Assembly: GCF_028368995.1 (NCBI RefSeq)
Contig: NZ_JAQNDL010000004.1
Span: forward strand, 672,001-736,000
Length of the DNA: 64,000 nt
Direction: 5' to 3'
From: Nannocystis bainbridge
GTDB taxonomy: Bacteria > Myxococcota_A > Polyangia > Nannocystales > Nannocystaceae
Each line of letters opens with the position of its first letter. Position 1 is the stretch's first letter. The notes beneath the pieces are model-generated. The model was not told the DNA's origin. It saw only the letters and a list, made by a program, of their open reading frames with translations, and did not search any database. A program made the position numbers and the translations under genes. Shown here in pieces: positions 43,193 through 62,144 of the stretch.

Positions 43193-43434
43193 GGAATTGC
43201 GAGGATAAGGAACGGGGCCGGTCTGCGCCAGTCGGCGAGCGCCGCGACGCGGCGTGCGGGCGTCGGTGCGCGCGCTGCGAGGCGCAGACCGCGAGGCGCG
43301 AGCGTGAGGCGAGATCGTGAGCAGGAGGCGCCTGGCGCCTCGTACGGCGCCGTTTCGCAGCGGCCGGCAGACCGCGCGCCGGGCGAACGAAGAACACTGG
43401 TTCGTCCTTCGCAGTGCGTGGCGCGTGGGCGAGC

Positions 43435-43907
43435 TCAGCCCGGCTCGAGGCAGTAGCCGGAGCCGGCGACCTTGTTGTTCTCGGTCCGGCACTCCTGCCA
43501 CAGGTGCTCGGGCATGCCGTCGTCGAGGACCACGTAGACCGGCGTCGCGCCGTCGGTGAGGGCCATCGAAGGGTTGGCGACGTCGATCGCCACGTCCTCG
43601 GCCTCGGCGGGGTAGAGCGCCTTCTTCGTCATGCCCTCGCCGAGCTTGACGCCGCCCATGTCGGGGTCGCCCTCGTAGAAGCCGACCACCACGCCGGCCG
43701 GCACCGCCGCCTGGCCGATGTTGCGGACGCGGGCGACGATGCCGTACGGGCCGTCGCAGCGGGGGAAGATGGTGGCGGTCAGGTCGGGCGCCGAGAATTC
43801 GCCCTCGGGCTGGACGTTCTGCCGATAATTGTTGAGACCGTCGGCCTTCCAGTTGGGCGTCTCGGCGACCGGCACGGTGCCGTCCTCGCCGATGTTGGTG
43901 ATGTGGT
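43435..43907 (-). pseudogene. 3' fragment of an FG-GAP lipoprotein gene interrupted at the YHITN motif
   Basis: HITNIGEDGTVPVAETPNW..NNYRQNVQPEGEF..WQECRTENN, closely paralogous to the C-terminus of 25291-27648; no 5' part adjacent. Confidence 0.85.
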
Positions 43908-44106
43908 GTACAGCCAGCTCTAGACCCCCCTACTGGCTGTTCTACAAGGGGTGTCTCGGAAAACGCCAGAATCGCGACAAAATCGAGACGATTTTTCGAG
44001 ACAACCAGGGGATCGCGCCGTCGCGCATCAGGGGCTCCAAGGCACCCCAGACCTCCCGCTTGACCAAGCTTTCAGTCCGCCGGCCGCCGGACCGACGAGA
44101 CAAGCG
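43895..44106. repeat. att-like ~212-bp direct repeat, copy 1
   Basis: ttggtgatgtggtgtaca...gggatcgcgccgtcgcgcatcaggg...ccgccggccgccggaccgacgagacaagcg, near-identical to 45814-46026. Confidence 0.9.
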
Positions 44107-44178
44107 CTGCCGCGACGGGGCACCCCTCAGGCCGGTGGCGGCTTGATTGCGGGCGCAGCGGCGCCTACGGTCGGGGTG

Positions 44179-44664
44179 ATGACGACAGCAACGTATACGC
44201 ATGTCACGACGACCCTGATCGAAGCGCCGGTTGAGGTGGTGTGGTCGCAGGTCCGCGACCTGCTCGTGCTGGTCCGGATGGTCTTCGGCACGAAGCTCGA
44301 CGAGTACTACACGCGCGGGTGGATCGAAGGCGGCTCGGTGGACCGCGTGCCGGCGGCGCTCGCGTTCTGCCTGCGATCGGGCGGGCCGGAGATGGTCGTG
44401 GAGGGGGTCGGCCGCTCGGACCGCGAGTACCTGCTGCAGTACTGCACCCGCGGGCGGGTGATGCTCGTGGCCGACTACTTCGGCGAGCTCCGGCTGATCC
44501 CGACGACGCACCCGGCGGACTGGACGGTCATGGTCCACAAGCGGGAGTTCTCGGTGCTCGACGGCACGGCCAGCGACTACGCGGCGCAGATGGTGGCGGG
44601 GATGGTCGACTTCATGAACGGCGAGGCGGAGGCGATGCGGGACGCGTTCACGCCGAAGTCGTAG
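44179..44664 (+). CDS. SRPBCC-like protein
   Basis: TTLIEAPVEVVWSQVRD N-terminal signature. Confidence 0.6.
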   Translation: MTTATYTHVTTTLIEAPVEVVWSQVRDLLVLVRMVFGTKLDEYYTRGWIEGGSVDRVPAALAFCLRSGGPEMVVEGVGRSDREYLLQYCTRGRVMLVADYFGELRLIPTTHPADWTVMVHKREFSVLDGTASDYAAQMVAGMVDFMNGEAEAMRDAFTPKS

Positions 44665-44930
44665 GCGTGATGGTCTGAGGAGTCCGACCACTTCAGCTTC
44701 GCAAAGTTCGTCGTCGAGAAGTTGAACAAGTACAGCGAGTCCAAGCCTCCTGGCCACGCCTCTCCTCTACCAGATCTCAGGTCCGTTGCAGCTCAGCCGA
44801 GGCAGTACACTTGGGGCAGGGTACAATCTGACACCCGGCCGAGACTCTCCAAGTGATTGAGACCGGCCAAGCACAGCAGTCCTGAGGGGCTCCGACCGAG
44901 TGACCTACCGAGGAAGTGGCGCTCGATGCT

Positions 44931-45446
44931 TCAGTAGGCTTCGTCGCGCGCGGACGTCCACGTTTCCCAGGTCAGCCCGACGACGAGGTGGTCGAGCAGC
45001 CGCGCGTCGGCGACCTCGAACTCGAGGATCTGCACCATGTGCAAATCGCGGAACGCGGGGGGCTTGGGGCCGCCGCTGTTGTTCTGTGCGTGCCACGCCG
45101 CGGCCTTCTCGAAGTTCGCGTTGCTGAGCTCGGTGATCCGGACGATCTCCGCCTCGGCGCTCTCGATGAGCTGCTCGTTGAACGCCTCGTCGTGGTTCGC
45201 CTGGAGCCCTTCGGAGTACGCGACGAGGCGCGCGGGGGCGCGGGCCGCGAGCTTCGTCGCGCTCTTCTTCGTCTGGTTCGTGTCCTTGTAGCTGTCGCGC
45301 AGCGCGTGGTGCGCGTCGGCGAGGAGCTGGAGCCCGAGGCACTTGTTGGCGGGCACCTCGGGGTACTGAAAGTTCAGGAGGAGCACCCGCGCGCGAACGG
45401 TGCGCTCCTCGAGGGCCTCGATGGTGATCTCGTAGGTCGCGCTCAT
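44931..45446 (-). CDS. Hypothetical protein
   Basis: 171-aa ORF with coding-like GC3 and normal composition. Confidence 0.7.
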   Translation of the reverse strand: MSATYEITIEALEERTVRARVLLLNFQYPEVPANKCLGLQLLADAHHALRDSYKDTNQTKKSATKLAARAPARLVAYSEGLQANHDEAFNEQLIESAEAEIVRITELSNANFEKAAAWHAQNNSGGPKPPAFRDLHMVQILEFEVADARLLDHLVVGLTWETWTSARDEAY

Positions 45447-45813
45447 CCGAGGGCCTGTACCAGAGACGGCGCGGACGACGCGAGTTCAAAATTCCGAGAC
45501 CCCCAGTGAGCGAGCGTACTCGCCAAGCGCGACGTGTGGCTCACGTCGTGGCGCGCGGGATTCGATGCGGCCCGCGCCCCTGTTGCGTCTGCAGCGGGTC
45601 GTGGACGCATCGCAGTAACGCAGCTACTGCCCCGCGCGGACGTCGGTCCGCACCGCATGTTGTCGTGGTATCAGCACGCGATCCTTGCCCATCGTCGCCA
45701 CATCTCACCCTAGCGGCGTTCGGCGCTGGCTGATACTAGCCGATTCCACTTCCACGAGAAGGCGCCAAAAGGTGCACTTGGACGGCGTTCAGGCGGCTGC
45801 CTGAAGCCGAGAT

Positions 45814-46026
45814 TTGGTGATGTGGTGTACAAGCCCAGCTAGACCCACATACGGGCTTGTTTGCGAGGTGTTGTCTCGAAAACTGCCCGGATCGCGACAA
45901 ATTCGAGACGAATTTTCGAGACATCCGGGGGATCGCGCCGTCGCGCATCAGGGCCTCCAAGGCACCCTGGACCTCCCGCTTGACCAAGCTTTCAGGCCGC
46001 CGGCCGCCGGACCGACGAGACAAGCG
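45814..46026. repeat. att-like ~213-bp direct repeat, copy 2
   Basis: Matches 43895-44106; contains the inverted repeat TGTCTCGAAAA...TTTTCGAGACA. Confidence 0.9.
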
Positions 46027-46183
46027 GAACGGGAACGTCGGCGCGCAGCGCCGAGCGACGGGCGACATCACACTGCCGGCGAAATTGCGTGACGTGAACC
46101 AGAGGACAGGCGACTCCCTCGTGTCCGTCTCGGTTCACGCCGAGCCCTCGCGTTCCGGCCGACGTGCGCCGAACGTCGCGTAG

Positions 46184-47367: not shown

Positions 47368-47451
47368 ATGACTGACCTCTTCTTCATCGCCGTCGTACTC
47401 GCGTCGTTCGCGGCCTTCTGGGGCTTCATGCGCTTCCTCGGCCGGCTCTGA
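47368..47451 (+). CDS. 27-aa hydrophobic peptide upstream of kdpF
   Basis: MTDLFFIAVVLASFAAFWGFMRFLGRL, single TM helix. Confidence 0.7.
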   Translation: MTDLFFIAVVLASFAAFWGFMRFLGRL

Positions 47452-47468
47452 CAAGGATTCCCGTCCCC

Positions 47469-47561
47469 ATGACCATCATGCACTGGCTCGCCGGCCTCGT
47501 GTCGATCGGCCTCGGCGTCTACCTCCTCGTCGCCCTCCTCGCCCCGGAGAAATTCTCGTGA
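47469..47561 (+). CDS. kdpF: K+-transporting ATPase subunit F
   Basis: MTIMHWLAGLVSIGLGVYLLVALLAPEKFS (YLLVALLxPEKF); overlaps the kdpA start. Confidence 0.9.
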   Translation: MTIMHWLAGLVSIGLGVYLLVALLAPEKFS

Positions 47562-49291
47562 CCGCGCATGCGCTCCTGCTGTGCGGCGTGTACGTCGCCG
47601 TCCTCGTCGCCCTGGCGATCCCCCTCGGGGGCTACTGCGCTCGGGCCCTGGGCGGCGAGGCGACGCTGCTTCAACGTCTGCTCGGCCCGCTCGAGCGCGG
47701 CCTCTATCGCGTCGCCGGCGTCCGACCGAACGACGAGATGCACTGGCGCGACTACACCGTCGCCGTGCTGTGGTTCAACCTGTTCGGCCTGCTCGTCGTG
47801 TACGGCCTGCAGCGGCTGCAGCACCTGCTCCCGCTCAACCCGCAGGAGCTCGGCCCAGTCGCGCCGGACCTCGCCTTCAACACGGCGGTCAGCTTCGCCT
47901 CGAACACCAATTGGCAGGCGTACGGCGGCGAGACGACGCTTAGCTATCTGACGCAGATGGTCGGGTTGACGACGCAGAACTTCGTGTCGGCGGCGACCGG
48001 CATCGCCGTCCTCGCCGCCCTGTCGCGTGCCTTCTCGCGTCGGCGCTCGGAGACGATCGGTAATTTCTGGGCCGACCTGGTCCGTTCGACGCTCTACATC
48101 CTGCTCCCGCTGTCGCTCGTCCTCGCTGTCGCGCTGGCCGCCGACGGCGTGGTGCAGACGCTGGCGCCCGCAGCGGAGGTGGAGCTGATGCGCGCGGCCA
48201 CCGGTCCCGAAGGACAGGTGATCACGCAGCAGACCATCCCGCTCGGCCCCGGCGCCTCGCAGATCGCCATCAAGCAGCTCGGCACCAACGGCGGCGGCTT
48301 CTACAACGTCAACTCCGCGCACCCGCTCGAGAACCCGACGCCGCTGACCAACTTCCTCGAGTGCCTGGCGCTCCTGCTGATCCCGGCGGCGCTGTGCCTG
48401 AGCTTCGGCAAGATCGTGGCGGATCGGCGCCAGGGCTGGGCCGTGTTAGGGGCGATGTTCGCCATCTTCCTGCCGCTGCTCGGGCTCTGCGTCTGGTCCG
48501 AAGGACAGCTCGCGCCGCAGCTCGTCGAGCTCGGCGTCGATCCCTCGGCCGGCAACCTCGAGGGCAAGGAGGTGCGGTTCGGTCCGGCCGCCTCGGCGCT
48601 GTGGGCGACGGCGACCACCGCGGCCTCGAACGGCTCGGTCAACTCGATGCACGACTCGTTCAACCCGCTCGGCGGATTGGTGCCGATGTGGCTCATGCAG
48701 ATCGGCGAGGTCGTGTTCGGCGGCGTCGGCTCGGGGCTCTATGGCATGCTCGTGTTCGCCATCCTGGCGGTGTTCCTCGCCGGCCTGATGGTGGGTCGCA
48801 CACCCGAGTACCTCGGCAAGAAGATCGAGGCCTTCGAGGTCAAGATGGCCGCGCTCGTGGTCCTGCTGCCGTCGGCCGGCGTACTGGTCGGCACCGCGAT
48901 CGCGGTCGCCAGCGCCGCGGGGCGGGCCGGTATCTCGAACCCGGGCATTCACGGGTTCAGCGAGGTGCTGTACGGCTTCTCGTCGGCGTCGAACAACAAC
49001 GGCAGCGCGTTCGCCGGTCTCGGCGCCAACTCGTTCTTCTACAACCTGGCCCTCGGGCTATGCATGCTGATCGGGCGCTACGGCATCATCGTGCCGGTGC
49101 TGGCGCTCGCCGGCGCGCTCGCCCGCAAGCAGACCGTCCCGCCCGGGCCCGGCACGATGCCGACCCATACGCCGCTGTTCGTGTTCCTGCTCGCCGCGAT
49201 CGTCGTGCTGGTCGGTGCATTGACATTCGTGCCCGCGCTCGCGCTCGGGCCGATCGTCGAGCACCTGCAGATGACCGGCACCCACCCCTGA
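47558..49291 (+). CDS. kdpA: K+-transporting ATPase subunit A
   Basis: FNTAVSFASNTNWQAYGGE, IKQLGTNGGGF, SNGSVNSMHDS, NNNGSAFAG. Confidence 0.97.
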   Translation: MTAHALLLCGVYVAVLVALAIPLGGYCARALGGEATLLQRLLGPLERGLYRVAGVRPNDEMHWRDYTVAVLWFNLFGLLVVYGLQRLQHLLPLNPQELGPVAPDLAFNTAVSFASNTNWQAYGGETTLSYLTQMVGLTTQNFVSAATGIAVLAALSRAFSRRRSETIGNFWADLVRSTLYILLPLSLVLAVALAADGVVQTLAPAAEVELMRAATGPEGQVITQQTIPLGPGASQIAIKQLGTNGGGFYNVNSAHPLENPTPLTNFLECLALLLIPAALCLSFGKIVADRRQGWAVLGAMFAIFLPLLGLCVWSEGQLAPQLVELGVDPSAGNLEGKEVRFGPAASALWATATTAASNGSVNSMHDSFNPLGGLVPMWLMQIGEVVFGGVGSGLYGMLVFAILAVFLAGLMVGRTPEYLGKKIEAFEVKMAALVVLLPSAGVLVGTAIAVASAAGRAGISNPGIHGFSEVLYGFSSASNNNGSAFAGLGANSFFYNLALGLCMLIGRYGIIVPVLALAGALARKQTVPPGPGTMPTHTPLFVFLLAAIVVLVGALTFVPALALGPIVEHLQMTGTHP

Positions 49292-49303
49292 GATTTCGTC
49301 ATC

Positions 49304-51370
49304 ATGCACTCGCCCAAGCACAAGCCCGCCCGCGGGCCGAGCATCCGTCGCGCCGCCATCGAGGCGTTCACGAAGCTCGATCCCCGGCGCATGGTGCGAA
49401 ACCCGGTCATGTTCGTGGTCGAGGTCGGCAGCGTCCTCACGACCATCCTCGCCGTCCAGGCCCTGGTCGGCGAGGGGGAGGCCCCCTTCGGGTTCATCGC
49501 CGGCGTCGCCGCCTGGCTGTGGTTCACGGTGCTGTTCGCCAACTTCGCCGAGGCGCTTGCCGAGGGCCGCGGCAAGGCGCAGGCCGAGAGCCTGCGCAAG
49601 GCCCGGCAGCACGTGCAGGCGCGCCGGCTGGCCGAGCGCGACCGACACGCCAAGGCCGTGCAAGTGCCGGCAGCGCAGCTCCGCCGTGGCGACCTCGTCC
49701 TCGTGATCGCCGGCGACACAGTTCCCGGCGACGGCGACGTGGTCGAGGGCATCGCCTCCGTCGACGAGAGTGCCGTGACGGGCGAATCAGCGCCGGTCAT
49801 CCGCGAGAGCGGCGGCGACCGCAGCGCCGTCACCGGCGGCACGCGGGTGCTGTCGGACTGGATCATCGTCGAGATCCGCAGCAATCCCGGCGAGACCTTC
49901 CTCGATCGCATGATTGCGATGGTCGAGGGCGCCAAGCGCAAGAAGACGCCGAACGAGATCGCGCTCGACATCTTGCTCGCCGGGCTGTCGCTGGTGTTCT
50001 TGCTCGCCTGCGCGACGCTGTACCCGTTCTCGCTCTACGCGCTCGAGACGCGCGGCCAGGGCGCCCCGGTGCCGATCACCGTGCTCGTCGCGCTGCTCGT
50101 GTGTCTGATCCCGACCACGATCGGCGGACTCCTGTCGGCGATCGGCATCGCCGGTATGGATCGCCTGATCCGCGCCAACGTGATCGCTACGTCGGGGCGC
50201 GCGGTCGAGGCCGCCGGCGACGTCGACGTCCTCCTGCTCGACAAGACCGGCACGATCACGATCGGCAATCGTCAGGCGGTCGAACTGCTGCCGGCGGCGG
50301 GCGTGAAGGTCGAGGTGCTCGCGGAGGCCGCCCAGCTCGCCTCGCTGGCCGACGAGACGCCCGAGGGCCGCAGCATCGTCGTCCTCGCCAAGGAGAAGTA
50401 CGGCCTGCGCCAGCGCGAGCTCGCCAACACCGAGGCGCGCTTCATCGCCTTCACGGCGCACACTCGCATGAGCGGCGTCGATCTCGCCGGTCGCGAGATC
50501 CGCAAGGGCGCCGCCGACGCGATCGGCAAGCACCTCAAAGCCAAGGGCGGCGGTCTGAGCCCCGACATCCAGGCCCTCGTGCAGACGATCGCCAAGAGCG
50601 GCGGGACCCCGCTGGTCGTCTCCGAGGGGTCGAGGGCGCTCGGCGTCGTGCACCTGAAGGACATCGTCAAGGGAGGGATCCGCGAGCGCTTCGCCGAGTT
50701 CCGGCGGATCGGCATCGAGACGATCATGATCACCGGAGACAACCCGCAGACCGCCGGCGCGATCGCGGCGGAGGCCGGGGTCGACAGCTTCCAGGCCGAG
50801 GCCACCCCCGAGACCAAGCTGGCGCTGATCCGCAGCAAGCAGGCGGCCGGTCACCTGGTCGCTATGACCGGCGACGGCACCAACGACGCGCCCGCGCTGG
50901 CGCAGGCCGACGTCGCGGTGGCGATGAACACGGGTACGCAGGCGGCGAAAGAGGCCGGCAACATGGTCGACCTCGACTCCGACCCGACCAAGCTCCTCGA
51001 CATCGTCGAGATCGGCAAGCAGATGCTGATGACCCGCGGGGCGCTGACGACCTTCAGCGTCGCCAACGACGTCGCCAAGTACTTCGCCATCATTCCGGCC
51101 GCCTTCGCGGTGACCTATCCGGATTTGCGCGCGCTCGACCTGATGCACCTGCACTCACCGCAGAGCGCGGTGCTCGCGGCGGTGATCTTCAACGCGATCA
51201 TCATCATCCTGCTGGTGCCGATCGCGCTGCGCGGCGTGAAGGTGCGGCCGCTCCCGGCGGCGGCGCTGCTGCGGCGCAACCTCCTGATCTTCGGGCTCGG
51301 CGGCCTCGTCGCGCCCTTCATCGGGATCAAGCTCATCGACATGGTCATCACGACCGTCGGCGTCGCCTGA
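49304..51370 (+). CDS. kdpB: K+-transporting ATPase subunit B
   Basis: [21 protein letters not shown]. Confidence 0.97.
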
Positions 51371-51383
51371 GGAGGACACGAGC

Positions 51384-51956
51384 ATGCTGAGCGCCATTCG
51401 TCCCGCCCTGATCCTGCTGGCCCTCTTGACCGCCGTCACCGGCGTGGTCTACCCGCTGCTCGTGACGGGGATCGCTACCGTGCTGTTTCCTGATAAGGCC
51501 CATGGCTCGCTGGTTGTCGCGTCGTCGGGCCCCGTCGGCTCCGAGCTCGTCGGACAGAACTTCACCAGACCGGGTGATTTCTGGAGCCGTCCCTCGGCGG
51601 TCCACTACGACGCGAGCTCCTCGGGCGCGAGCAACATGGGGCCGCTGAATGAGGGCCTGCACGAGGCCGTCGCGGCGCGAATCGCTGCGCTGCAGGCAGC
51701 CGACCCCGAGGCCGAGCTGCCGGTCCCCGCCGATCTCGTGCTCGCGTCGGGGTCGGGCCTCGACCCGCATATCTCGCCGGAGGCAGCCCGCTACCAGGCG
51801 CGTCGCGTCGCGCAGGCACGCCGCCTGCCCAGGGCAGAAGTGCTCATGCTGATCGAGGCCCACACCGAGGGGCGCACGCTCGGTATCCTCGGGGAACCGC
51901 GCGTGAACGTGCTTCGCCTCAACCGCGCCCTCGAGGGGCTCCGATCCTCGCCATGA
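51384..51956 (+). CDS. kdpC: K+-transporting ATPase subunit C
   Basis: GSELVGQNF, SGASN, ASGSGLDPHIS, VNVLRLN. Confidence 0.95.
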   Translation: MLSAIRPALILLALLTAVTGVVYPLLVTGIATVLFPDKAHGSLVVASSGPVGSELVGQNFTRPGDFWSRPSAVHYDASSSGASNMGPLNEGLHEAVAARIAALQAADPEAELPVPADLVLASGSGLDPHISPEAARYQARRVAQARRLPRAEVLMLIEAHTEGRTLGILGEPRVNVLRLNRALEGLRSSP

Positions 51957-54667
51957 ACCGCATGGAGCTCGACGACGACCGTCCTGACCCCGAGGCCCTC
52001 CTCGAGGTCGCGCGCGCCGAGGAGGCCAAGGCCAAGCGCGGCGAGCTGAAGATCTTCTTCGGCGCGGCCCCGGGCGTCGGCAAGACGTACGCGATGCTCG
52101 AGGCGGCGCGGCGCGCCCGGGCCGAGGGGATCGACGTCGTCGTCGGCATCGTCGAGACGCACGGGCGCAGCGAGACGGCGGCGCTGCTGGAGGGGCTCGA
52201 TCGCCTCCCGCTGCGCACGATCGAGTATCGCGGCAAGGCGCTCCAGGAGTTCGACCTGGAGGCTGCGCTCGCGCGCCGACCCGAGCTGCTGCTCGTCGAC
52301 GAGCTCGCGCACACGAATGTGCCCGGCTGCCAACATCGCAAGCGCTGGCAGGATGTCGATCTCTTGCTCGCCAGCGGTATCGACGTCTACACCACCCTCA
52401 ACGTCCAACACCTCGAGAGTCTCAACGACGTCGTCGCCCAGATCACGTGGATCCGCGTCCGCGAGACGATCCCCGACGCGGTGTTCGACCGCGCCGACGA
52501 CGTCGAGCTGTGCGACCTGCCGGCCGACGAACTGCTGGAGCGGCTCAAGGAGGGCAAGGTCTACCTGCCCGAGCAGGCCCGGCACGCGACCGAGGCTTTC
52601 TTCCGCAAGGGCAACCTGCTCGCGCTGCGCGAGATGGCGCTGCGGCGCATGGCCCAGCGGGTCGACAGCGACGTGCAGGCGTATCGCCGCGCGCACGGGA
52701 TCTCGACCACCTGGGCCATGTCCGAGCGGATCCTCGTGTGCATCGGCCCGAGCCCCAACGGGCCGCGGCTGGTTCGCGCCGCGGCCCGCATGGCGGCGGG
52801 GCTGCGCGCCGAGTGGATCGCGCTGCACGTCGAGACGCCGCGCCTGGCGCTCGTGCGCGCGACGGGTCGCGGGGCTCTGGTCGAGACGATTCGTCTCGCT
52901 GAGTCGCTCGGGGCCGAGGTCGTCAACATCAGCGGCGAGCCGATCGGCGAGCGGCTCCTCGAGTACGCGCGCGCGCGCAACGTCACCCGCCTCGTCGTCG
53001 GCAAGCCGAGCCAGCCGCGCTGGCGCGAGCTGCTCGGCGGTTCGGTGCTCGACACGCTGGTCCGCGGCAGCGGCGCGATCGACGTCCACGTGATCTCCGG
53101 GGACGAGGGTCCTGGGGCTCGCCGGCCGATGCTGCGGCCCGTGACGCCGAGTCGCGCACGACCGATCCCCTACGCGTGGGCGGTCGGCAGCGTCGCCGGC
53201 GTGACCGGACTGTGCACGCTGCTCTACAGCTACGTCGACATGTCCGACATCATCATGCTCTACCTGCTGGTGATCATGATGACGGCGGCCCGCTTCGGCC
53301 GCGGACCGTCGATGCTGGCCGCGGTCCTGAGCGTCGCCTCCTTCGACTTCTGCTTCGTTCCGCCGTTTTATACGTTCGCAGTCGCGGATGCGCGCTACAT
53401 GCTGACCTTCGGCGTGATGCTCCTGGTCGGCATCGTCATCTCGGGCCTTACCGAGCGCGTGCGCATGCAGGCCGAGGCGGCCCGCGGGCGTGAGCAGCGG
53501 ACGGCGATCCTCTACTCGCTGAGCCGCGAGCTGGCGCAGCTCCGCCACAAGCAGAGCATCGGCACGAGCGCCGCTCGCCACGTCGCCGAGCTCGCCGGGG
53601 GACGCGTGGTCGTCCTCGTCGCAGGAGCGGACGATTCGCTGACGCCGCTGCAAGGGACCGACGTCGAGCTCGTGGCAGATCCGCTGGAGCAGGCCGCCGC
53701 CCGCCAGGCGTTCGAGCGGGGCCCGGCGGGCGCGGGCACCGATACGCTGTCGTCCGCCAAAGCCCTCTACGTGCCGCTCCAGGCGGTCGGTCGCACGATC
53801 GGTGTCCTCGGCGTGACGACCGGGGACCCCGTCCGCCTGCGTCATCTCGCGGAGCAGGAGCTCTTGGCGGCGATGAGCGGCCAGGTCGCGCTGGCGCTCC
53901 ACCGCGTGCTGCTCGCTCAGGAGGCGCAACAGGCCGAGCTCCGCGCGCGCACGGAGGAGCTGCGGGGGGCCCTCCTCAGCTCGGTCAGCCACGACTTGCG
54001 CACGCCCTTGACCGCGATCAGCACGGCCGCCAGCGTGCTCGGCCAGGCGGGCCCGATGGCGGACGAAAAGCGGCGCGAGTTCGCGAGCTCGATCTACGAA
54101 GAGGCGCTCGGCCTCGGCCGGCTCGTCACGAACCTCCTGCACATGACGCGGCTCGAGACCCAGGGTGTCGCGCTGCGACGCGAGTGGACGCCGCTCGAGG
54201 ATCCTATCGGCGCGGCGTTGACCCGGCTCGAGCGGGCGCTCGCGGGTCACATGGTGAACGTGTCGCTCGCGCCCGACCTACCGCCAGTGCTGCTCGACGA
54301 GGTGCTGTTCGAGCATTTGATGCTCAACCTGCTGGAGAACGCCGCCAAGTACACGCCGCCTGGCAGCGCCATCGACATGTCTGCGCGCGTCGAAGGCGCC
54401 TCGGTCGTGGTCGAGGTCGCGGACCGCGGCGACGGGATCCCCGCTGGCCAGGAGGACCGGATCTTCGAAAAGTACTTCCGGGTCGGCGGCCCCGCTCAGG
54501 GCGGCTTCGGGCTCGGTCTGGCGATCTGCCGCGCGATCGCGGTGGCTCACGGCGGCACCATCACCGCGGCCAACCGACCGCAGGGCGGCGCGCTCTTTCG
54601 CGTCACGATGCCGATCGGTGAGGAGACGCAGACCGCCCTCCCGTCCGCGCAGGAGGCGACAGCATGA
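51953..54667 (+). CDS. kdpD: Sensor histidine kinase KdpD
   Basis: GAAPGVGKTYAML, DELAHTN, Usp domain, 4 TM helices, SHDLRTPL. Confidence 0.96.
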   Translation: MNRMELDDDRPDPEALLEVARAEEAKAKRGELKIFFGAAPGVGKTYAMLEAARRARAEGIDVVVGIVETHGRSETAALLEGLDRLPLRTIEYRGKALQEFDLEAALARRPELLLVDELAHTNVPGCQHRKRWQDVDLLLASGIDVYTTLNVQHLESLNDVVAQITWIRVRETIPDAVFDRADDVELCDLPADELLERLKEGKVYLPEQARHATEAFFRKGNLLALREMALRRMAQRVDSDVQAYRRAHGISTTWAMSERILVCIGPSPNGPRLVRAAARMAAGLRAEWIALHVETPRLALVRATGRGALVETIRLAESLGAEVVNISGEPIGERLLEYARARNVTRLVVGKPSQPRWRELLGGSVLDTLVRGSGAIDVHVISGDEGPGARRPMLRPVTPSRARPIPYAWAVGSVAGVTGLCTLLYSYVDMSDIIMLYLLVIMMTAARFGRGPSMLAAVLSVASFDFCFVPPFYTFAVADARYMLTFGVMLLVGIVISGLTERVRMQAEAARGREQRTAILYSLSRELAQLRHKQSIGTSAARHVAELAGGRVVVLVAGADDSLTPLQGTDVELVADPLEQAAARQAFERGPAGAGTDTLSSAKALYVPLQAVGRTIGVLGVTTGDPVRLRHLAEQELLAAMSGQVALALHRVLLAQEAQQAELRARTEELRGALLSSVSHDLRTPLTAISTAASVLGQAGPMADEKRREFASSIYEEALGLGRLVTNLLHMTRLETQGVALRREWTPLEDPIGAALTRLERALAGHMVNVSLAPDLPPVLLDEVLFEHLMLNLLENAAKYTPPGSAIDMSARVEGASVVVEVADRGDGIPAGQEDRIFEKYFRVGGPAQGGFGLGLAICRAIAVAHGGTITAANRPQGGALFRVTMPIGEETQTALPSAQEATA

Positions 54668-55377
54668 GCGAGCCCGGAGCCTTGATCCTCATCGTCGAGG
54701 ACGAACCGTCGGTGCGGCGATCGTTACGGACGATCCTGCTCGACTGCGGGTTTCGGGTCGTGGAGACCGAGACCGCGGCCGAGGCAGTGCTGCGGGCCAG
54801 GGAGCACAACCCCGACCTCGTCCTCCTCGACCTCGGGCTGCCCGACCGGGACGGCCTCACGGTCGTCACGGCGATGCGAGCCTGGTCGCTGGCGCCGGTG
54901 ATCGTCCTGTCGGCGCGCGGCCAGGAGGACGACAAGGTCACAGCGCTCGATTCCGGCGCCGACGACTATCTCATGAAGCCATTCAGTGCCAACGAGCTGC
55001 TGGCGCGGATCCGCGTCGCGCTGCGGCACGTCGCGCAGCGGACCCCGCTTCGTGATCCCGTGGTCGAGCTGGGCGACGTGAGGGTCGACCTCGGTCGTCG
55101 GGTGGTGACGCGGTCGGGGCAGGAGATTCACCTGACCCCGCACGAATACAAGCTCCTCGAGGTCCTGCTGCGACACGCGGATCGGGTCGTCACGCACCGG
55201 CAACTGCTGAACGAAGTGTGGGGACCGGGACATTCCACGGAGACCCGCTATCTCCGCGTCTACATGGTCGCGCTGCGGCAGAAGCTCGAGCCCGTGCCGG
55301 GGCGCCCGCGCTGGATCATCACCGAGCCCGGCGTGGGCTACCGTCTTCGGCTCGACCGCGAATTAGCATCGTCTTAA
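54664..55377 (+). CDS. kdpE: Response regulator KdpE
   Basis: LLDLGLPD, GADDYLMKPF, YLRVYMVALRQKLE..TEPGVGYR. Confidence 0.93.
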   Translation: MSEPGALILIVEDEPSVRRSLRTILLDCGFRVVETETAAEAVLRAREHNPDLVLLDLGLPDRDGLTVVTAMRAWSLAPVIVLSARGQEDDKVTALDSGADDYLMKPFSANELLARIRVALRHVAQRTPLRDPVVELGDVRVDLGRRVVTRSGQEIHLTPHEYKLLEVLLRHADRVVTHRQLLNEVWGPGHSTETRYLRVYMVALRQKLEPVPGRPRWIITEPGVGYRLRLDRELASS

Positions 55378-55410
55378 CCCGCAGCTCTCTACGCTGGCAG
55401 CACGTCGTTC

Positions 55411-56928
55411 ATGTGCATGCCGGTTCCGCTCTTTATCTCGCTCGTCAGGCTGCTGGCAGCCGTGGCCCCCGCCGAGCCGTCGCCGCCCGGCTCGGCGTCC
55501 CCGACCGCGCCCGCAGCCGCTCCTTCCGCCCCGTCTGCGGGGTCCACGGCGCCCTCTGCAGACCCGGGGGCTACGCGCTCGCTTCCGCCCTGGACGCCCC
55601 CGGACGACGAGGACGAGGTCCAGGGCGCGCTGCCCGGCACCGATGCGGCGTCCGTGAACAACCCGGCGATCTCGGCCGGGCGAACTCCGGCAGCGCCGGC
55701 CGCGGTGCCTGTGGGCCCCCGCGAGGAGGCGGACGAGGACCGGGTACAGAAGACATTGCCGGGGACGGACGCGGCGGCGGTGAACAACCCCGCGATCTCG
55801 GCCGGTGACAAGATGGACCCGAACGGGGTCGCCGGCTTCAAGGCGTGGGAAGTCGGCGGCTTCATCGACGTCAACTACAGCTACAACAGCAACAACCCCG
55901 ACAATCATGTCTACCGCGGCACGAGCGTGCAGCCGCGGACCGGCGAGTTCTCGCTCAACCACGCGGTCGCGTACATCCGCCGCGATGCGATTCCGGGCCG
56001 CTTCTCGCCGCTGTTCGAGTTCGCCGCGCAGGGCGGTCCGGCCGCCGACGCGCTGGTCGCCTACGAGCCGAACCCGGGCGGCGCCAACGGCAAATTCGCC
56101 GGACCGGAGGTGTGGAAGCATATCTCGCGGGCCACCATCGGGTTTCGCACCCGTCACGGCACGGAGTTGGTCGCGGGCCTGCACCTGAGCCCCGTCGGTA
56201 TCGGCATTCACTGGAGTCCCTACAACTGGAACTACACGGTCACCTGGCAGCTCAACAGCGTGCCGTACTACCTCTCGGGCATCAAGTTCGCGCAGACGAT
56301 CCGCGACAAGCACCAGGTCCAATTGTGGGTGACCAACGGCTGGCAGATCCTCGCCGACAACAACAAGGCGCCGAGCGTGATGCTGGGCTACACCTTCACG
56401 CCGAGCGAGCGCTTCAACTTCGGCGAGTACGTATGGATCGGCCCCGAGCAGGCCGACATGCGCCCGAATGCCTGGCGACTGTTCTCCGACTCGCAGTTCA
56501 CCTACAACACCGAGCGCTTCGGCATCGGCGGGCTGTTCGACGTCGGCGCCGACCCGCGCACCGACCTGCCGCTGACGCCGTGGCAGATGTGGATGAACGG
56601 GGCGATCTTCACTCGCTGGCGCGTGCTCGGGAAGGAGCGCACGTGGGACATGGCCCTGCGCCCCGAGTTCTTCTGGGACCGCGACGGCCGGATGTTCGGC
56701 GTCCCGCAGACCTTGATCTCGGGCGCCTTCACCAACAACTTCCGCATCTTCAACAACCTCCTGTTGCGCGTCGAGTACCGCTACGACCACTCGACCAACC
56801 CCAATGGCTTCTTCTACCGCGGGGCCGCGATCGCCGACGACGCCATGGGCCTCGGACGCGACCAGCACACCGTGTTCTTCAGCGCCGCGGGCGTGTTCGC
56901 CCACCGCTTCGGCGGCAAGCGCCCATGA
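55411..56928 (+). CDS. Outer-membrane beta-barrel porin (BBP2/OmpL-like)
   Basis: Signal-like N-terminus; GGFIDVNYSYN, PYYLSGIK, NGWQ..DNN, LRVEYRYD. Confidence 0.75.
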   Translation: MCMPVPLFISLVRLLAAVAPAEPSPPGSASPTAPAAAPSAPSAGSTAPSADPGATRSLPPWTPPDDEDEVQGALPGTDAASVNNPAISAGRTPAAPAAVPVGPREEADEDRVQKTLPGTDAAAVNNPAISAGDKMDPNGVAGFKAWEVGGFIDVNYSYNSNNPDNHVYRGTSVQPRTGEFSLNHAVAYIRRDAIPGRFSPLFEFAAQGGPAADALVAYEPNPGGANGKFAGPEVWKHISRATIGFRTRHGTELVAGLHLSPVGIGIHWSPYNWNYTVTWQLNSVPYYLSGIKFAQTIRDKHQVQLWVTNGWQILADNNKAPSVMLGYTFTPSERFNFGEYVWIGPEQADMRPNAWRLFSDSQFTYNTERFGIGGLFDVGADPRTDLPLTPWQMWMNGAIFTRWRVLGKERTWDMALRPEFFWDRDGRMFGVPQTLISGAFTNNFRIFNNLLLRVEYRYDHSTNPNGFFYRGAAIADDAMGLGRDQHTVFFSAAGVFAHRFGGKRP

Positions 56929-56947
56929 CCCAGCCATCGGAGGTCGG

Positions 56948-57133
56948 ATGTCTCCACTGATCATACTCCTCGTCGTATTCGCCGGCTTCGGGATCTACGG
57001 CGCCATCAGCGATCGGGCCGACGATCGGGCCCGCCGCCGGAAGGCGCTCCGTCACACGCTCGAGCAATTGCCGGTCGATCGTCGGCAACCCCGGACCATG
57101 CCTCGCGCCGGGGAGAGGCGGACGCCTCGGTGA
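56948..57133 (+). CDS. Small membrane protein
   Basis: GGAGG RBS; MSPLIILLVVFAGFGIYGAIS. Confidence 0.5.
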   Translation: MSPLIILLVVFAGFGIYGAISDRADDRARRRKALRHTLEQLPVDRRQPRTMPRAGERRTPR

Positions 57134-58087
57134 GCGCCGAGTAACTTCATCGGCCGGCAAACGGCGGAGAGCGCGCACCGCGCTCGAATGAGACGCTTCC
57201 GACCCTGGCCCATCCAGGGCCGACGACTGGTGTCCCGGAGTCGACCGACCGAGACGTGGGCGGCATCGTGGCACCTCAGAGAGCTGGGCTTGGCTCACGG
57301 CTCGCAGAACCAGCCGAGGATCGCGGCGTCCCCGAGCGTGTGTCAGCCGAGCGCCAGGGCGACGAGGAGATAGCCCGTGTTCCAGCCGTAGCCGTAGAGG
57401 TGGTGCAGGACCACGAACACGCCGCCGCCGATCACCAGCTCGGTGGCGTCGGCACGTCCATGCCGACACGAGTCTATCAGGGCTTGCCGCCGCCGGGCGG
57501 CTGGGTCCCCAGGTTGTTCGGGGCGCCGCCGGAGTGCCTGGACGGACAACTGCATCCGTCCACCAGCGCAGCGGCGGCGATCACGACGACCACAAGGAAC
57601 CATACCGCCGACTTCTCGGTCTCGATCGCCAGATCGCCGAGCCCTTGCCCGAGCTGTTCGTCCGTCAGCGGCTCGCCGTGGATCGGGCACGGGAGCGCGA
57701 CGTGGGCCGTGATGAAGCGGCGTTTCCGCCACCGACGCGTCGACAACTCGCGCGATCGACCCGCCAGGGTGTAGTCGACGGCGCGCAACTTTGGCGTGGT
57801 CGACCACGAGCGCCGCGTGTCGTCGCGCTCGACGCATTCCCGCAATGGGAGCATGCGGACGATTGCACCGCATGTTCTGCCGTCAGCCGGGCGCGATCTC
57901 AGAACAGGGTGTAGACGAACGGGGCGACGTAGGCGAGGCCGCCGGTGAGCCATAGCAGGACGCCGGCGAGCAGCAGGACGATCAGCCGCGGGGCGCCATC
58001 GCGCATCCGGGGCTGTGAGCAGGGCCAGACACCCCCCCGGCCCAAGCCTTGAGGCCGCGGGTCTGCGGGCCGTCGGGCCAGCGCCCC

Positions 58088-58663
58088 TCACTGGCAGCAG
58101 CCGTCCGGCAGCTTGTAGTCCGGGCGTGGCTCGCACCCGATCACGCGGCCCCGGGCGTCGACCGTGATGTCGCAACACTCGTCAAGCATTACGCGCAGGC
58201 GAGCACGCCCTCGCTGCACACGGGACTTCATCCCGGACAGCGAGACACCGAGCATCGCGGCCGCGTCCTTCTGCGTCAGTCCTTCGAGCTCGGTCAACGT
58301 CAGTGCTTCGCGGTAGGGCGACGGGAGCGCCGCCACGAACGGCGCGAGGTACGTGGCGAGCTCGCGCTCGACCGCGCCGTCGTCCTCCTCGTCGTCCGCG
58401 GCGGGCTCGTCGGCCGCTTCGAGAGACGCCAGCGGGTGCCGCAGGGCCGCGCGCTGGTGGTCGACGATGGCGCTCCGGGCGACCTGGTACACCCACGGCC
58501 CGAAACGATCCTCGTCACGGAGGTGGGGCAAGCTCTTCTGCATGCGCAAGAAAATGTCCTGAAGGACATCTTCGGCGTCGGCCCCGGCGACGCGGCGCGC
58601 GACGAACGGACGGAGCTTGCGTTCTAGCTCCCGCCACGCGCCGCGCATCTCCAACGTGATCAT
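58088..58663 (-). CDS. sigZ: ECF sigma factor, SigZ-like, Cys-rich C-terminus
   Basis: DAEDVLQDIFLR, WVYQVARSAIVD, YREALTLTELEGLTQ..SGMKSRVQRGR..ECC. Confidence 0.85.
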   Translation of the reverse strand: MITLEMRGAWRELERKLRPFVARRVAGADAEDVLQDIFLRMQKSLPHLRDEDRFGPWVYQVARSAIVDHQRAALRHPLASLEAADEPAADDEEDDGAVERELATYLAPFVAALPSPYREALTLTELEGLTQKDAAAMLGVSLSGMKSRVQRGRARLRVMLDECCDITVDARGRVIGCEPRPDYKLPDGCCQ

Positions 58664-58778
58664 GTCGAGTGACCTCCCGGCCGGTCGGGTTGGACGCCTG
58701 GTCGCGTCCCGTCGATCACCATGTCAGAGCCGTTGCAGCGCCGCAACGCCCCGGACACTGCCGCGACGCTGCGGCCAA

Positions 58779-59336
58779 TCATGCCGGGGCCTTCGCGTTG
58801 GCGGACTGAGCCCCGCGCAAGCCGAGGTAGACGTGCAGGAGACCGAGGACGATCGCGCCCGGTACCAGGTTGATGGCGAGCGCGGCGCTGAACCCCGGCA
58901 TCGGCGTATGGAGCACCGTGGGGCCGTCGAGCGTCCATGCGGAGGCGGGTCGAGCGGCAAGGACGAGCGCCAGCGACGCCGCGTGCAGCATCGTCAGCGT
59001 GACGTGCACGGTGTACTCCGCGGTGCTCAGGCCCCCCAGCGTCGCCCGGCTGTCACGCTCGATCGCCACGTCCCAGAGCCCGACCACGAGGTCGAGGACG
59101 GCGACTCCGACCGCCGCCCAAAGGAGCGCCCCGGCGGTCGGCGCGGCGAACAAACCGCCGACGAACGCCGGGAAGAGAAGGGCTCGCAGGGTGTGCAGCC
59201 AGTGCTCGCGGCGGGTCTCCGCGCGCTGGTGAAGCCTCAGCCGCCAGAGGTGGATGTAGAGCCCGTCGACCGCGGCGAGGACGGCGTAAGCGGCGAGAAG
59301 GACCGCGGCGACGTTGGTCAGCGTGGCATCGATCAT
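58779..59336 (-). CDS. Membrane protein with His-containing TM helices
   Basis: DGLYIHLWRLRLH, EHWLH, AEYTVH; 4-5 TM helices. Confidence 0.75.
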   Translation of the reverse strand: MIDATLTNVAAVLLAAYAVLAAVDGLYIHLWRLRLHQRAETRREHWLHTLRALLFPAFVGGLFAAPTAGALLWAAVGVAVLDLVVGLWDVAIERDSRATLGGLSTAEYTVHVTLTMLHAASLALVLAARPASAWTLDGPTVLHTPMPGFSAALAINLVPGAIVLGLLHVYLGLRGAQSANAKAPA

Positions 59337-59355
59337 GGTCGACTCCGTGGTGTGC

Positions 59356-60153
59356 TCAGGCGGCGCCGCCGCGGGGTCGGTTGGCCTCGATGATCGCCGA
59401 CGCGACGTAGTTCTCGGCGCCGGACCCCGGGACCCAGTCCTTGATGAACTCTCGGCTCTCGGGCTTGACGCTGATCCTGATGTTCTCGAAGCCGGCCTCG
59501 CGCAGCAGCGCCTCGAGCACCCCGACCTCGGCCGCACCGGCGACGCAGCCGGTCCGCGCGGCGACTTGCGTCGCCAGCTCCTCGGGCAAGGTCGCGGTGG
59601 CGACGACATCGGAGATGGCGAGCCGCCCGCCCGGCCTCAGCACCCGGAACGCCTCGCGGAACACGGACCCCTTGTCGGGCGAGAGGTTGATGACGCAGTT
59701 CGAGAGGATCACGTCGACCTGCGCATCGGCGACGGGCAGGTGCTCGATCTCGCCGAGCCGAAACTCGACGGTGCGCGCGTCGAGCTTCCGCGCGTTGGCC
59801 CGCGCCTTGGTGATCATGTCCGGCGTCATGTCGACGCCGATCACGCGGCCGGTCGGGCCGACCTGGCGCGCGGCGAGGAAGCAGTCGAAGCCGCCGCCGC
59901 TGCCAAGGTCGAGCACGACCTCGCCGGGCCGCAGCGCCGCGATCGCCTGCGGGTTGCCGCACCCGAGGCCCATGTCGGCCCCTTCAGGGACGGCGGCCTG
60001 CTCCTCGGCCGAGTAACCAAGTTGGTGGCTGGAGTCCGTCTTCGGGCCGCTGCAGCAGCCGGGAGTGCAGCCGCTCGCGGCGCCGGTGTTGGCGATCTTG
60101 GCGTAGTGCTCGCGGACGGCGCCGCGGATCTCGTCGTCGTTCTGGTCGGTCAT
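59356..60153 (-). CDS. arsM: Arsenite S-adenosylmethionine methyltransferase
   Basis: [38 protein letters not shown]. Confidence 0.92.
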
Positions 60154-60258
60154 GATGGTTTCCGCCCCGAAGACGACGACCCTCCCGAAAGGACGCAGAC
60201 TTTTTTCGGGCCTCGCCGCCTCCCGCTTTCGGGCTTGAATCTCGGCGCCTGAGGCTAT

Positions 60259-60274
60259 ATCGTTAAAATGCGAT
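60259..60274. promoter_or_regulatory. Putative ArsR operator overlapping the arsR start
   Basis: ATCG-N8-CGAT; similar ATCG-N8-CGAA at ~60623-60638 before acr3. Confidence 0.5.
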
Positions 60275-60614
60275 GAGCGACGCCGCCCCCTCGGCCTGCT
60301 GCCCTCCCTCCGACGACCGCCCGGACCTCCGACCGATCGAGGGGGAGGAGGCCGATCAAGAGCTCGCGGCGCTGGCGAAGGCGGTCGGACATCCCGCCCG
60401 GGTGCAAATCCTCCGGCTACTGGCGCGCCGCGCGTCGTGCGTTTGTGGCGAGATCGTCGACGAGCTCCCGCTCGCGCAGTCGACCGTGTCGCAGCACCTG
60501 AAGGTGCTGAAAGACGCCGGTCTCATCCGCGGCGAGATCGATGGCCCGCGGACCTGTTACTGCATCGACAACCGCGCCCTCCGTCGGCTAAAGGCGCTCG
60601 TGGGTGGCCTCTAG
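60273..60614 (+). CDS. arsR: ArsR/SmtB repressor
   Basis: [33 protein letters not shown]. Confidence 0.9.
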
Positions 60615-60674
60615 CCCGCTAAATCGTCCTTCTACGAACGCGAGCGCCGGCCTCGCGTCGATGGAGTGTTCTGC

Positions 60675-61715: not shown

Positions 61716-61718
61716 CCC

Positions 61719-62144
61719 ATGAGCGTCCCCAACTTCACGAGCGTCCTGTTTCTCTGCGTCGCCAACTCGGCCCGTAGTCAGATGGCCGAGGCCCTTGCGC
61801 GCGCCCGTTGGGGCGATCGCGTGCGTGTCACCAGCGCTGGCTCGCAACCCACACGCATCAACCCCTTCGCCATCGAAGTGATGCGCGAGCGAGGCCTGGA
61901 CCTCGGGTCTCACTACTCCAAGTCCGTGACGACGATCGATCCCGCCTCGGTCGACCTCGTAATCACCCTCTGCGCCGACGAGGTCTGCCCGCTGTTCCTG
62001 AGCAAGGCACCGCGCCTGCACTGGCCGCTTCCGGATCCCGCGAGCGATGATCCCTCGTTGACCCGCGACGACATGCTCGAACGCTTCCGGCGCACCGCGG
62101 ACGCGATCGAAACCTGCCTTCCTGAGCTCGACGGACGCGCCTAG
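61719..62144 (+). CDS. arsC: Thioredoxin-type arsenate reductase (LMWP fold)
   Basis: FLCVANSARSQMAE, ITLCADEVCP, HWPLPDP. Confidence 0.92.
   Translation: MSVPNFTSVLFLCVANSARSQMAEALARARWGDRVRVTSAGSQPTRINPFAIEVMRERGLDLGSHYSKSVTTIDPASVDLVITLCADEVCPLFLSKAPRLHWPLPDPASDDPSLTRDDMLERFRRTADAIETCLPELDGRA

Follow-up and report, generated by a model that had tools for sequence, protein, structure and literature searches.

Within a 64,000-nucleotide (nt) stretch of the Nannocystis bainbridge genome (contig NZ_JAQNDL010000004.1, positions 672,001 to 736,000 of the forward strand, 70.5% G+C; hereafter the window), a gene of the FG-GAP/VCBS protein family is cut off at a short conserved motif by a non-coding sequence that recurs in tandem ~1.9 kb further on. 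Two small genes lie between the two copies, and a larger segment with kdp and arsenic-type genes follows the second. A preliminary description made from the letters alone had read the copies as attachment (att)-like sites of an integrating element family. The direct repeat spans 43895-44106 and 45814-46026 (spacing 1919/1920), and TTGGTGATGTGGT opens both copies (43895, 45814). The copies are 86% identical overall, the inner 155 nt (92%) being better conserved than the first 58 nt (74%). The 18-mer TTGGTGATGTGGTGTACA occurs at two places in the window, 43895 and 45814, when up to 3 mismatches are allowed, against 0.01 expected by chance; blastn of 43895-46026 against phage and plasmid collections gave no match. 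All sequence features that the preliminary description reported were recovered, among them the ~212-bp tandem repeat with its core, the second copy lying 1919 bp on; clustered CG(C/A)GAC direct repeats with an inverted TGTCTCG..CGAGACA pair in each copy; the hairpin TTCAGGC-GGCT-GCCTGAA in the left flank of copy 2; two small cargo genes in 43908-45813, with no recombinase match among stop-to-stop open reading frames (ORFs) of at least 60 amino acids (aa); and a kdp/ars segment behind this cassette, whose genes we identified by Pfam.

The claim that an FG-GAP gene is cut at its (Y)HITN codons also held. The fragment at 43438-43908 shares 55% identity (82/148, E 6e-56) with residues 720-867 of an intact 876-aa paralogue in the window (25294-27921), and this homology begins exactly at HITN; its codon use is host-like (G+C at third codon positions, GC3, 0.97). 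The paralogue carries the near-identical motif reported at ~25751, namely TTGGTGACGTGGT. The best longer relative, P0001 (839 aa), is 87% identical across the whole fragment, which corresponds to the P0001 C-terminus, and the longer relatives among the matches listed are mostly 700-850 aa. Full-length proteins align as ...WNQH(T/A)Y-H-(I/V)-T-N..., with H, T and N invariant in eight of eight. The uninterrupted target that the preliminary description expected in relatives was found at the protein level, where the ~839-aa orthologues and their kin (P0001, P0002, P0004, P0005, P0007 and P0008) continue through the motif. Since intact orthologues run on through HITN, the window retains only the last 157 codons of the gene, and the break lies within or directly after TTGGTGATGTGGT. 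A tRNA target was considered and rejected, as neither the window nor the related loci described below have a tRNA close to the site. Elsewhere in the window, ARAGORN called a tRNA-Gly (anticodon ACC) at 3000-3084, inside an ORF for an Ada/AraC-methyltransferase fusion (2430-3551); this call is probably a false positive.

We scanned species-representative genomes with an exact 20-mer from the repeat (its part beyond the core is hereafter the arm) and obtained three loci, in which BLAST located four arm copies; since the scan needed an exact 20-mer, diverged copies elsewhere would have been missed. Locus L001 (Nannocystis sp. RBIL2) and locus L002 (N. exedens DSM 71) hold one copy each, and L003, 2 Mb from L001 in RBIL2, holds two, 2987 nt apart (L003a and L003b). 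All six arm copies from the three genomes (two in the window, one each in L001 and L002, two in L003) open at TTGGTGA, are preceded by unrelated sequence and share only these 7 nt at the boundary. The 13-bp core of the preliminary description is present twice in the window, but the universal core is these 7 nt. Likewise, the ~212-bp extent applies to the window repeat, but conservation reaches ~+325 in four of the six copies (copy 2, L001, L002 and L003b), with copy 1 ending at +212. Directly after the core, two subtypes were distinguished: TGTGGTGTACA in copies 1 and 2, L001 and L003a, and A(G/A)TCATG(T/C)(G/A)CA in L002 and L003b. Every copy is in direct orientation, and no inverted arm copy was found in the window or in L001-L003. 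An arm-derived ORF searched against 1.84 billion representative proteins gave three matches at E <= 0.001 (P0283-P0285), all of them arm copies without an FG-GAP flank.

Synteny places a break on the same boundary. The window and L001 are 93% identical over 45813-46184 and 47245-52197 and do not match left of the core; homology to RBIL2 ends leftward at 45813, so that synteny is lost precisely at the core. Copy 2 has its orthologue in L001 (91% identity, versus 86% between copies 1 and 2). Copy 2 being closer to L001 than to copy 1, the two window copies diverged before the two genomes did, and on the same figures we rejected a recent local duplication.

The sequences preceding the core fall into two types. 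GATG-TTGGTGA precedes copy 1, inside the FG-GAP gene, and also L002, and we refer to these as target-type flanks. In L002 the flank consists of ~14 nt, GTTGATGTTGGTGA (TNIN), that are FG-GAP-like and lead at once into an N-terminally truncated DUF3592-like gene, an intact homologue of which lies at 5715-6272 of the window. L002 may be a target-type junction that later suffered a deletion, a suggestion that rests on these few bases. We favour it because the FG-GAP fragment P0146 starts V-HDFTNVAEDG, in which HDF is the translation of a subtype-2 arm. The other four copies, together with a seventh core (L003c), carry far-side (P-type) flanks that have little sequence in common. A motif, CCG(A/G)TTCCACTT, lies 55-75 nt before the core in four of the five P-type flanks (window, L001, L003b and L003c), and L003a and L003b have 24 nt in common; the hairpin at 45788-45805 is not conserved in the other copies. 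In all P-type flanks, in the window and in the loci, the Asn codon is changed to Lys.

The seventh core provides the reciprocal junction; the lack of such a junction had been set beforehand as a condition for refutation, and one was found in a relative. This third L003 core, TTGGTGATGTG at 1599-1609, has the orientation of the other two. On its P side stands GCGGTTCCACTTGGAAC; on its other side stands TGTGATAACCGCGCCGATTCCAGATCCGG, which aligns with the paralogue's CGTGGTAGGCGTGCTGGTTCCAGATCCGG and encodes NRIWNRRGYHIT|K, a 44-nt remnant of an FG-GAP 5' part. Apart from this remnant, L001-L003 contain no FG-GAP 5' half. With the core at 1599 and the 5' remnant beside it, the RBIL2 array of ~8.6 kb (10182 to 1599) has FG-GAP 5' sequence as its border at one end. 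Both junction types therefore exist: 3' part-core-arm in the window, and far flank-core-5' part in L003 and, as a protein, in P0176 (below). One core is common to them all, as TTGGTGATGTGGT at 43895 and 45814, TTGGTGACGTGGT in the intact paralogue and TTGGTGATGTG at the L003 junction. The RBIL2 array is also bracketed by an 82-nt direct repeat that is 100% identical between L003 1316-1397 and 12451-12532, adjoined by an 89%-identical repeat at 1067-1130 and 12502-12566; the 82-nt repeat contains an inverted repeat (GGGGAAGTGCCGGCCGCGA...) and resembles an element of the repetitive extragenic palindrome (REP) or miniature inverted-repeat transposable element (MITE) type.

Breaks at the same codons recur in database proteins. 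We positioned 55 homologues of a length similar to that of the window fragment against P0001, and 17 of them begin their homology at P0001 positions 681-685 (Y|HITN). Five of the 17 carry foreign N-terminal extensions of 14-41 aa (P0122, P0129, P0123, P0143 and P0151), two have one extra residue (P0146 and P0171), nine start (M/V)TN and one starts YHVTN. The other 38 have scattered starts, as contig-end partial genes do, or begin at the first downstream start codon, as in the gene call of the window (P0121). As the ORFs that start (M/V)TN are ambiguous in their contig position, independent junctions number 17 at most; P0143, P0151, P0146, P0176, the window and L003 provide the firm ones. In P0143 (MRDDAISRSSRKFVSILSRF...) and P0151 the extension translates the minus strand of the arm: tblastn aligned 48 aa with window 44028-43885 at 48% identity (E 7.7e-8), 19 aa with L002 at 79% and 31 aa with 45951-45859 at 55% (E 6.3e-6). 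Since their FG-GAP parts share only 55-60% identity with P0001, these are separate genes from separate organisms, interrupted at identical codons by one kind of arm. P0146 reads HDFTN, with the second arm subtype as in L002, and the shared extension of P0122 and P0129 (MRGGEISGLW...) is more diverged, with a weak arm match (E 0.1).

We searched for the complementary 5' halves with residues 540-690 of P0001, which yielded at least 120 proteins among the matches listed, and screened all 282 collected proteins by script. A length of at least 400 aa was reached by 224 of the 282, a WNQHxY-type motif was present in 223 of these 224, and at least 100 residues follow the motif in 220 of the 223. In the remaining three, 55 (P0204), 91 (P0254) and 9 (P0176) residues follow. 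P0176 (695 aa, representing a cluster of 27 member sequences and 93% identical to P0001 in the searched region) ends ...WNQHTYHIT|KDIRLS. Two further FG-GAP fragments, P0125 and P0131, begin elsewhere, at (A)VIDNDG(Q/H)ADIVV, 55 residues upstream of HITN. Their start is preceded by ...PY(S/T)QELG(R/P)FEGP, and in P0125 also by LRGDAIS..., which resembles the MRDGAI box of the arm; they may belong to a sister family of elements, one directed at a second motif in these FG-GAP proteins.

Each arm has a distinctive internal layout (Table 1). Per copy, CGCGACA, CGAGACG and CGAGACA direct repeats start 11 and 13 nt apart, with an inverted TGTCTCG 20 nt upstream of them and a fifth site, CGAGACA, at the last bases of the repeat; CGAGAC occurs four times per copy, against 0.23 expected per 212 nt from its window-wide frequency. 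Two blocks, 44010-44033 and 44055-44075, are identical between the window copies. The second contains a palindrome, GCTTGACCAAGC (44058-44069 and 45978-45989), that includes an inverted near-copy (TTGGTCA) of the core TTGGTGA, is invariant in six of six known copies and may be a second recombinase-binding site. In the consensus fold the inverted TTGGTCA half of this palindrome pairs with the core.

Table 1. Features of the interrupted FG-GAP locus and of the two segments that follow it (window coordinates)
Feature	Position	Strand or sequence	Details
Unoccupied homologous site in the paralogue	25751..25763	TTGGTGACGTGGT	Codons YHVTN; 7-nt core intact, 1 mismatch in 13
Displaced 3' fragment of an ~839-aa FG-GAP/VCBS gene	43438..43908	-	157 codons, begins HHITN, stop 43435-43437
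Core, copy 1	43895..43907	TTGGTGATGTGGT	Invariant part TTGGTGA 43895-43901; doubles as the gene's H-I-T-N codons
Arm, copy 1 (probable element side)	43908..44106	+	No coding signature in any frame
Arm copy 1, sub-sites			TGTCTCG 43953-43959; CGCGACA 43973-43979; CGAGACG 43984-43990; CGAGACA 43997-44003 and 44096-44102
Cargo gene 1 of the 1.9-kb unit	44179..44664	+	161 aa, SRPBCC/polyketide-cyclase-like; PF10604 E 1e-5, just under gathering score; GC3 0.95
Cargo gene 2 of the 1.9-kb unit	44931..45446	-	171 aa, no known family; GC3 0.96
Far-side (P-type) flank of the 1.9-kb unit	45740..45813	+	Weakly conserved; CCGATTCCACTT 45740-45751; hairpin TTCAGGC-GGCT-GCCTGAA 45788-45805
Core, copy 2 (internal, attP-like junction)	45814..45826	TTGGTGATGTGGT	RBIL2 synteny begins 45813
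Arm, copy 2, with extension	45827..46135	+	Arm to 46026; extension conserved in L001, L002 and L003b
Arm copy 2 extension, conserved stretches			GAGCGACGGGCGACATCAC 46053-46071; CCAGAGGACAGGCGACTCC 46099-46117
Decayed fragments opening the second segment	46136..47371		MerR N-terminal piece, TrkH C-terminal piece (Pfam)
Second-segment cargo	47372..62144	+	kdpABC, kdpD, kdpE, OmpL-like porin, extracytoplasmic function (ECF) sigma factor, S-adenosylmethionine methyltransferase, ArsR, Acr3-type SBF, low-molecular-weight (LMW) phosphatase/ArsC-like (Pfam)

We propose that the repeats are the element-side arms of att sites produced by site-specific recombination, most likely by a tyrosine (lambda-Int-type) integrase, and consider this explanation likely. 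The earlier proposal of an element family directed at a conserved motif of a multicopy protein family is supported by the reciprocal junction, the synteny break and the recurrence at HxTN. From this arrangement we infer the class of the recombinase, the strand-exchange region, the arm-type sites, accretion, and mobility in trans or in cis only, which would combine as follows. A tyrosine integrase would pair an element site (far flank-TTGGTGA-arm) with an FG-GAP site, strand exchange taking place inside TTGGTGA or immediately beside it; an invariant core of 7 nt agrees with the usual length of the overlap. The CGAGAC-type direct sub-sites, about one helical turn apart, would be candidate arm-type binding sites, and the palindrome with its inverted core-like TTGGTCA a candidate further protein site. 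The chromosomal target would be GTTGGTGA(T/C)GTGGTA, encoding Y-H-(I/V)-T-N of the ~800-aa FG-GAP/VCBS family; as the family tolerates no change in the residues encoded by the core, many paralogues and species carry the site.

Integration would split the gene, leaving the last 157 codons at the near junction and the first ~683, with a short foreign tail, at the far junction. The far junction would be expected to show, in this order, a flank bearing the CCGRTTCCACTT motif, TTGGTGATGTGGTA and, in reverse complement, ...WNQHxY with ~680 FG-GAP codons. The broken gene would not be restored, its cost presumably being buffered by paralogues. Repeated integration into a resident junction would produce the order seen in the window, fragment-core-arm-[1.9 kb]-flank-core-arm-[>=18 kb], with a conserved arm at the start and a poorly conserved flank at the end of each unit. 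No recombinase lying in the window or near the related copies, the 1.9-kb unit (43908-45813) would be integrase-less and comparable to a cis-mobilizable element (CIME), able to move only in trans or in cis with a neighbour.

The two segments carry unremarkable host-like cargo genes in the first case and mainly kdp and arsenic-type genes in the second (Table 1). For the two cargo proteins of the 1.9-kb unit we found no functional indication beyond the weak SRPBCC match, and gene 2 had no match in Pfam, NCBIfam, PHROGs, PADLOC or Atlas. The second segment has no end inside the window. Its RBIL2 counterpart (L001 4953-9856) holds the C-terminal half of an AcrB-family gene, a cation diffusion facilitator (CDF) gene, a full TrkH and a piece of an M20 peptidase; compared with these longer versions, the MerR and TrkH pieces of the window indicate that decay at the beginning of this segment is taking a different course in each of the two genomes. 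The arsenic-type cluster behind the kdp operon occupies 58091-62141 (ECF sigma factor, Methyltransf_31 on the minus strand at 59359-60153, ArsR, Acr3-type SBF and ArsC-like LMW phosphatase). Outside both segments, at 13017-18221, the window contains two tandem SrpI-like (type 2A) encapsulin shell genes with cyclic-nucleotide-binding domains, followed by a terpene synthase. The Rfam family Sernc350 ('Saccharopolyspora sRNA 350') matched in antisense inside both shell genes (201 and 89 bits), where the model may capture coding sequence.

The one link to an integrase is a single predicted protein. Residues 9-76 of P0137 (195 aa) match positions 98-166 of the 172 of Phage_integrase (PF00589, E 2e-11), and its structure matches are XerA, XerD and IntI4 (E 3e-7 to 2e-6; XerA 5hxy, E 2.7e-7), over the generic catalytic region only. 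From the position of the catalytic tyrosine, P0137 continues FSAPDV..., which is an FG-GAP fragment of the P0122/P0129 lineage in the same orientation. P0137 may be the product of a deletion that removed the integrase end, the arm and the start of the fragment; if so, the integrase gene adjoined the arm and was read towards the core. The absence of a visible integrase from the window, as first described, agrees with profile searches, an unrelated IS66 remnant excepted. A tyrosine-recombinase fragment fused to an FG-GAP fragment was found, but none in the window or near L001-L003; taken with the reciprocal junction and the arguments against an insertion-sequence end or a recent duplication, the evidence does not amount to the refutation set beforehand.

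Several observations weigh against the proposal. No recombinase of any class was found in the window (18 + 26 + 6 = 50 chosen ORFs, and the stop-to-stop ORFs around the repeats) or within 10 kb of L001, L002 and L003 (27 ORFs), so that an element encoding its own tyrosine recombinase was found in neither place. Among 131 stop-to-stop ORFs of at least 60 aa around all copies, the window share included, no integrase remnant stands beside any of the six arms, and tblastn with the catalytic part of P0137 against the window and loci returned noise only. The lack of remnants, together with four arms that have a common inner boundary at ~+325, is not what random decay of an integrase gene predicts. 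P0137 is one predicted protein, fused 30 codons downstream of HITN, and is possibly a deletion product or an assembly chimera. The 64-kb window contains neither an FG-GAP 5' half nor a right junction; junctions in other lineages are known from proteins alone, and the nine ORFs that start (M/V)TN lie on contigs of 1.3 to 50 kb and are ambiguous in position. Far-side flanks are barely conserved, which is unusual for attP arms of related elements. The genes left of L001 and L003a (beta-lactamase family, Ser/Thr kinase-tetratricopeptide repeat and beta-helix genes) look chromosomal and not like those of a mobile element.

Two transposase remnants also came to light during this search. The IS66-family remnant lies at 9483-10481 (9483-10599 when delimited more broadly; Pfam E 1.8e-7), is unrelated to the arms and adjoins cysteine-rich DUF4215-type repeats that also match an L001 repeat protein. 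In L003, the C-terminal part of an IS481/IS3-type transposase, frameshifted and ~250 nt away from the L003b arm unit, comes after an AT-rich stretch (5360-6640) that is foreign to the 70% G+C genome.

Some of these observations would be accommodated by a different arrangement, in which integrase-less units of 2-6 kb, each with a 212-325-nt module, are stacked at YH[I/V]TN by a trans-acting tyrosine recombinase, with a sister lineage at DNDGxADIV (P0125 and P0131). Such capture would resemble that of an integron without being one; we regard it as speculative and, on present evidence, unlikely. The 1.9-kb unit may be a cassette in its own right rather than a decayed island: in what is a small sample, the absence of an integrase remnant from the six arms and the single inner boundary of four of them favour the former. 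A search of its stop-to-stop ORFs and tblastn revealed no remnant of integrase or transfer genes in this unit.

A related explanation is that the recombinase is not carried by the units at all, being either a host Xer-type enzyme, as for integrative mobile elements exploiting Xer (IMEX) and dif modules, or a resident integron-like integrase, and that the units are true cassettes. The six units without an integrase, the single inner boundary of four of them and the two arrays of small units (1.9 kb in the window, 3.0 + 5.6 kb in L003) would fit, as would the Xer-type and IntI4 proteins that are the best solved relatives of P0137, over the generic catalytic region only. The site itself fits poorly. 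Integron attC sites measure ~57-141 nt and have the form RYYYAAC...GTTRRRY. The core TTGGTGA does not conform to GTTRRRY, and the boundary of the unit is N|TTGGTGA; no dif-like 11-6-11 or attC symmetry, and no 28-nt dif-like XerC/XerD half-site symmetry at the core, was apparent by eye against the generally known consensus. At 212-325 nt the module is far longer than attC or dif. There is no IntI among the window ORFs, and P0137 places an integrase gene beside the junction, as in ordinary islands. We consider an external recombinase of this kind distinctly improbable.

We hold it very unlikely that the repeat is a dispersed, non-mobile sequence, such as a regulatory region or a small RNA gene, reshuffled by duplication, deletion and homologous recombination. 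The lack of a nearby recombinase, the chromosomal-looking neighbours and the low copy number (6 in three genomes) would be expected of it, but the boundary is base-exact in six copies, falls inside the same codons of different FG-GAP genes in other lineages and has a reciprocal junction. Nor did the repeat behave as an RNA gene or promoter region. Fold z-scores for the two copies on both strands were -2.2, -1.1, -1.2 and -0.7; in the six-copy consensus fold, 2 of 58 pairs show compensatory changes and the covariation term is positive; no Rfam family reached gathering score in the repeat region; and a promoter and terminator scan of 43300-46400 found nothing exceeding shuffles. A core-proximal hairpin shows compensatory ACAGCCAG/CTGGCTGT versus ACAAGCCC/GGGCTTGT between the window copies and was rejected, as it is lost in L001, L002 and L003b. 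Hidden coding sequence was likewise rejected: 13 nt differences cause 6-12 aa differences in each of six frames, and three frames contain stops. Finally, that the two copies are two insertions of a transposon end of the Tn7/Mu/Tn552 kind, whose Asp-Asp-Glu (DDE) transposase binds several subterminal repeats, is scarcely credible: clustered subterminal repeats are present and an IS481/IS3-type rve fragment lies ~250 nt from the L003b unit, but that fragment is truncated, sits beside an AT-rich insert and is missing from the other five copies, there is no inverted arm, second end or sub-site cluster in the window or three loci, the first 13 nt are the gene's own codons in paralogue and orthologues, the core is common to both junction types without target duplication, and the recombinase fragment that adjoins a junction is a tyrosine recombinase.

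Integration by a tyrosine integrase invites comparison with known systems. In the lambda layout, a heterobivalent tyrosine integrase acts on an attP that has arm-type sites and a core in common with attB. Here too, a core is common to junctions and target, a long arm has repeated sub-sites and a tyrosine-recombinase fragment lies by one junction; unlike in lambda-type elements, the target is inside a protein gene that is not restored (P0176 ends 9 residues after WNQHTY), the far arm is hardly conserved and the window has no integrase. Integron cassette arrays are similar in consisting of small units that each have one recombination site and no recombinase, but differ in that here neither IntI nor attI is present, the site is 212-325 nt long and genes lie on both strands.

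A further comparison is with the accretion of CIMEs with integrative and conjugative or integrative and mobilizable elements (ICEs, IMEs), which parts of a review (PMC5704250) describe for the ICESt1 family of Streptococcus thermophilus and others. As in that account, an element devoid of integration and transfer genes retains its two att sites and stands in tandem with an island at one target, with three direct core repeats; correspondingly, the 1.9-kb unit is flanked by the cores at 43895 and 45814 and lacks integration and transfer genes. By contrast with the systems covered in those parts (PMC5704250), neither conjugation nor mobilisation genes were seen here, a myxobacterium is the host, the target lies elsewhere than at a gene 3' end, and the arm boundary common to several units is not predicted by deletion decay. 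Tandem islands and islands in protein genes are also on record, at least in the portions of the sources consulted here: dusA integrases (PMC4482086), SGI1-like elements in trmE and dusA (PMC8409611), PAISt modules at bacA (PMC4057263) and tandem ssrA islands of Dehalococcoides (PMC3146451). These resemble the present case in having a target held constant by selection on the gene product and in forming tandem or modular arrays; as far as these portions go, their targets are single-copy housekeeping genes whose end is usually restored, whereas here an internal motif of a multicopy surface-protein family is hit and the gene is broken.

In the full-text literature that we searched, we found no description of an FG-GAP/VCBS gene as an integration target or of integrative elements of Nannocystis. 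Islands in protein genes, tandem arrays and integrase-less remnants are already known; the FG-GAP/VCBS target class is new. To our knowledge, mobile elements of the Nannocystaceae are almost undescribed. The exact core and arm provide a probe for complete elements and their integrase, which might serve the engineering of these large genomes, and the displaced gene ends offer an explanation for short 'hypothetical' or 'hemolysin, partial' ORFs of myxobacterial genomes and metagenomes. To the tRNA, transfer-messenger RNA (tmRNA) and single-copy housekeeping genes already listed as integration targets, the finding adds a motif that lies inside the genes of a multicopy surface-protein family and is constrained at the protein level. 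Should the integrase-less units prove to be mobile, the stacking of cassettes on a chromosome outside integrons would have its second example, and if they belong to a capture system, conservation at the protein level would give it many landing pads per genome.

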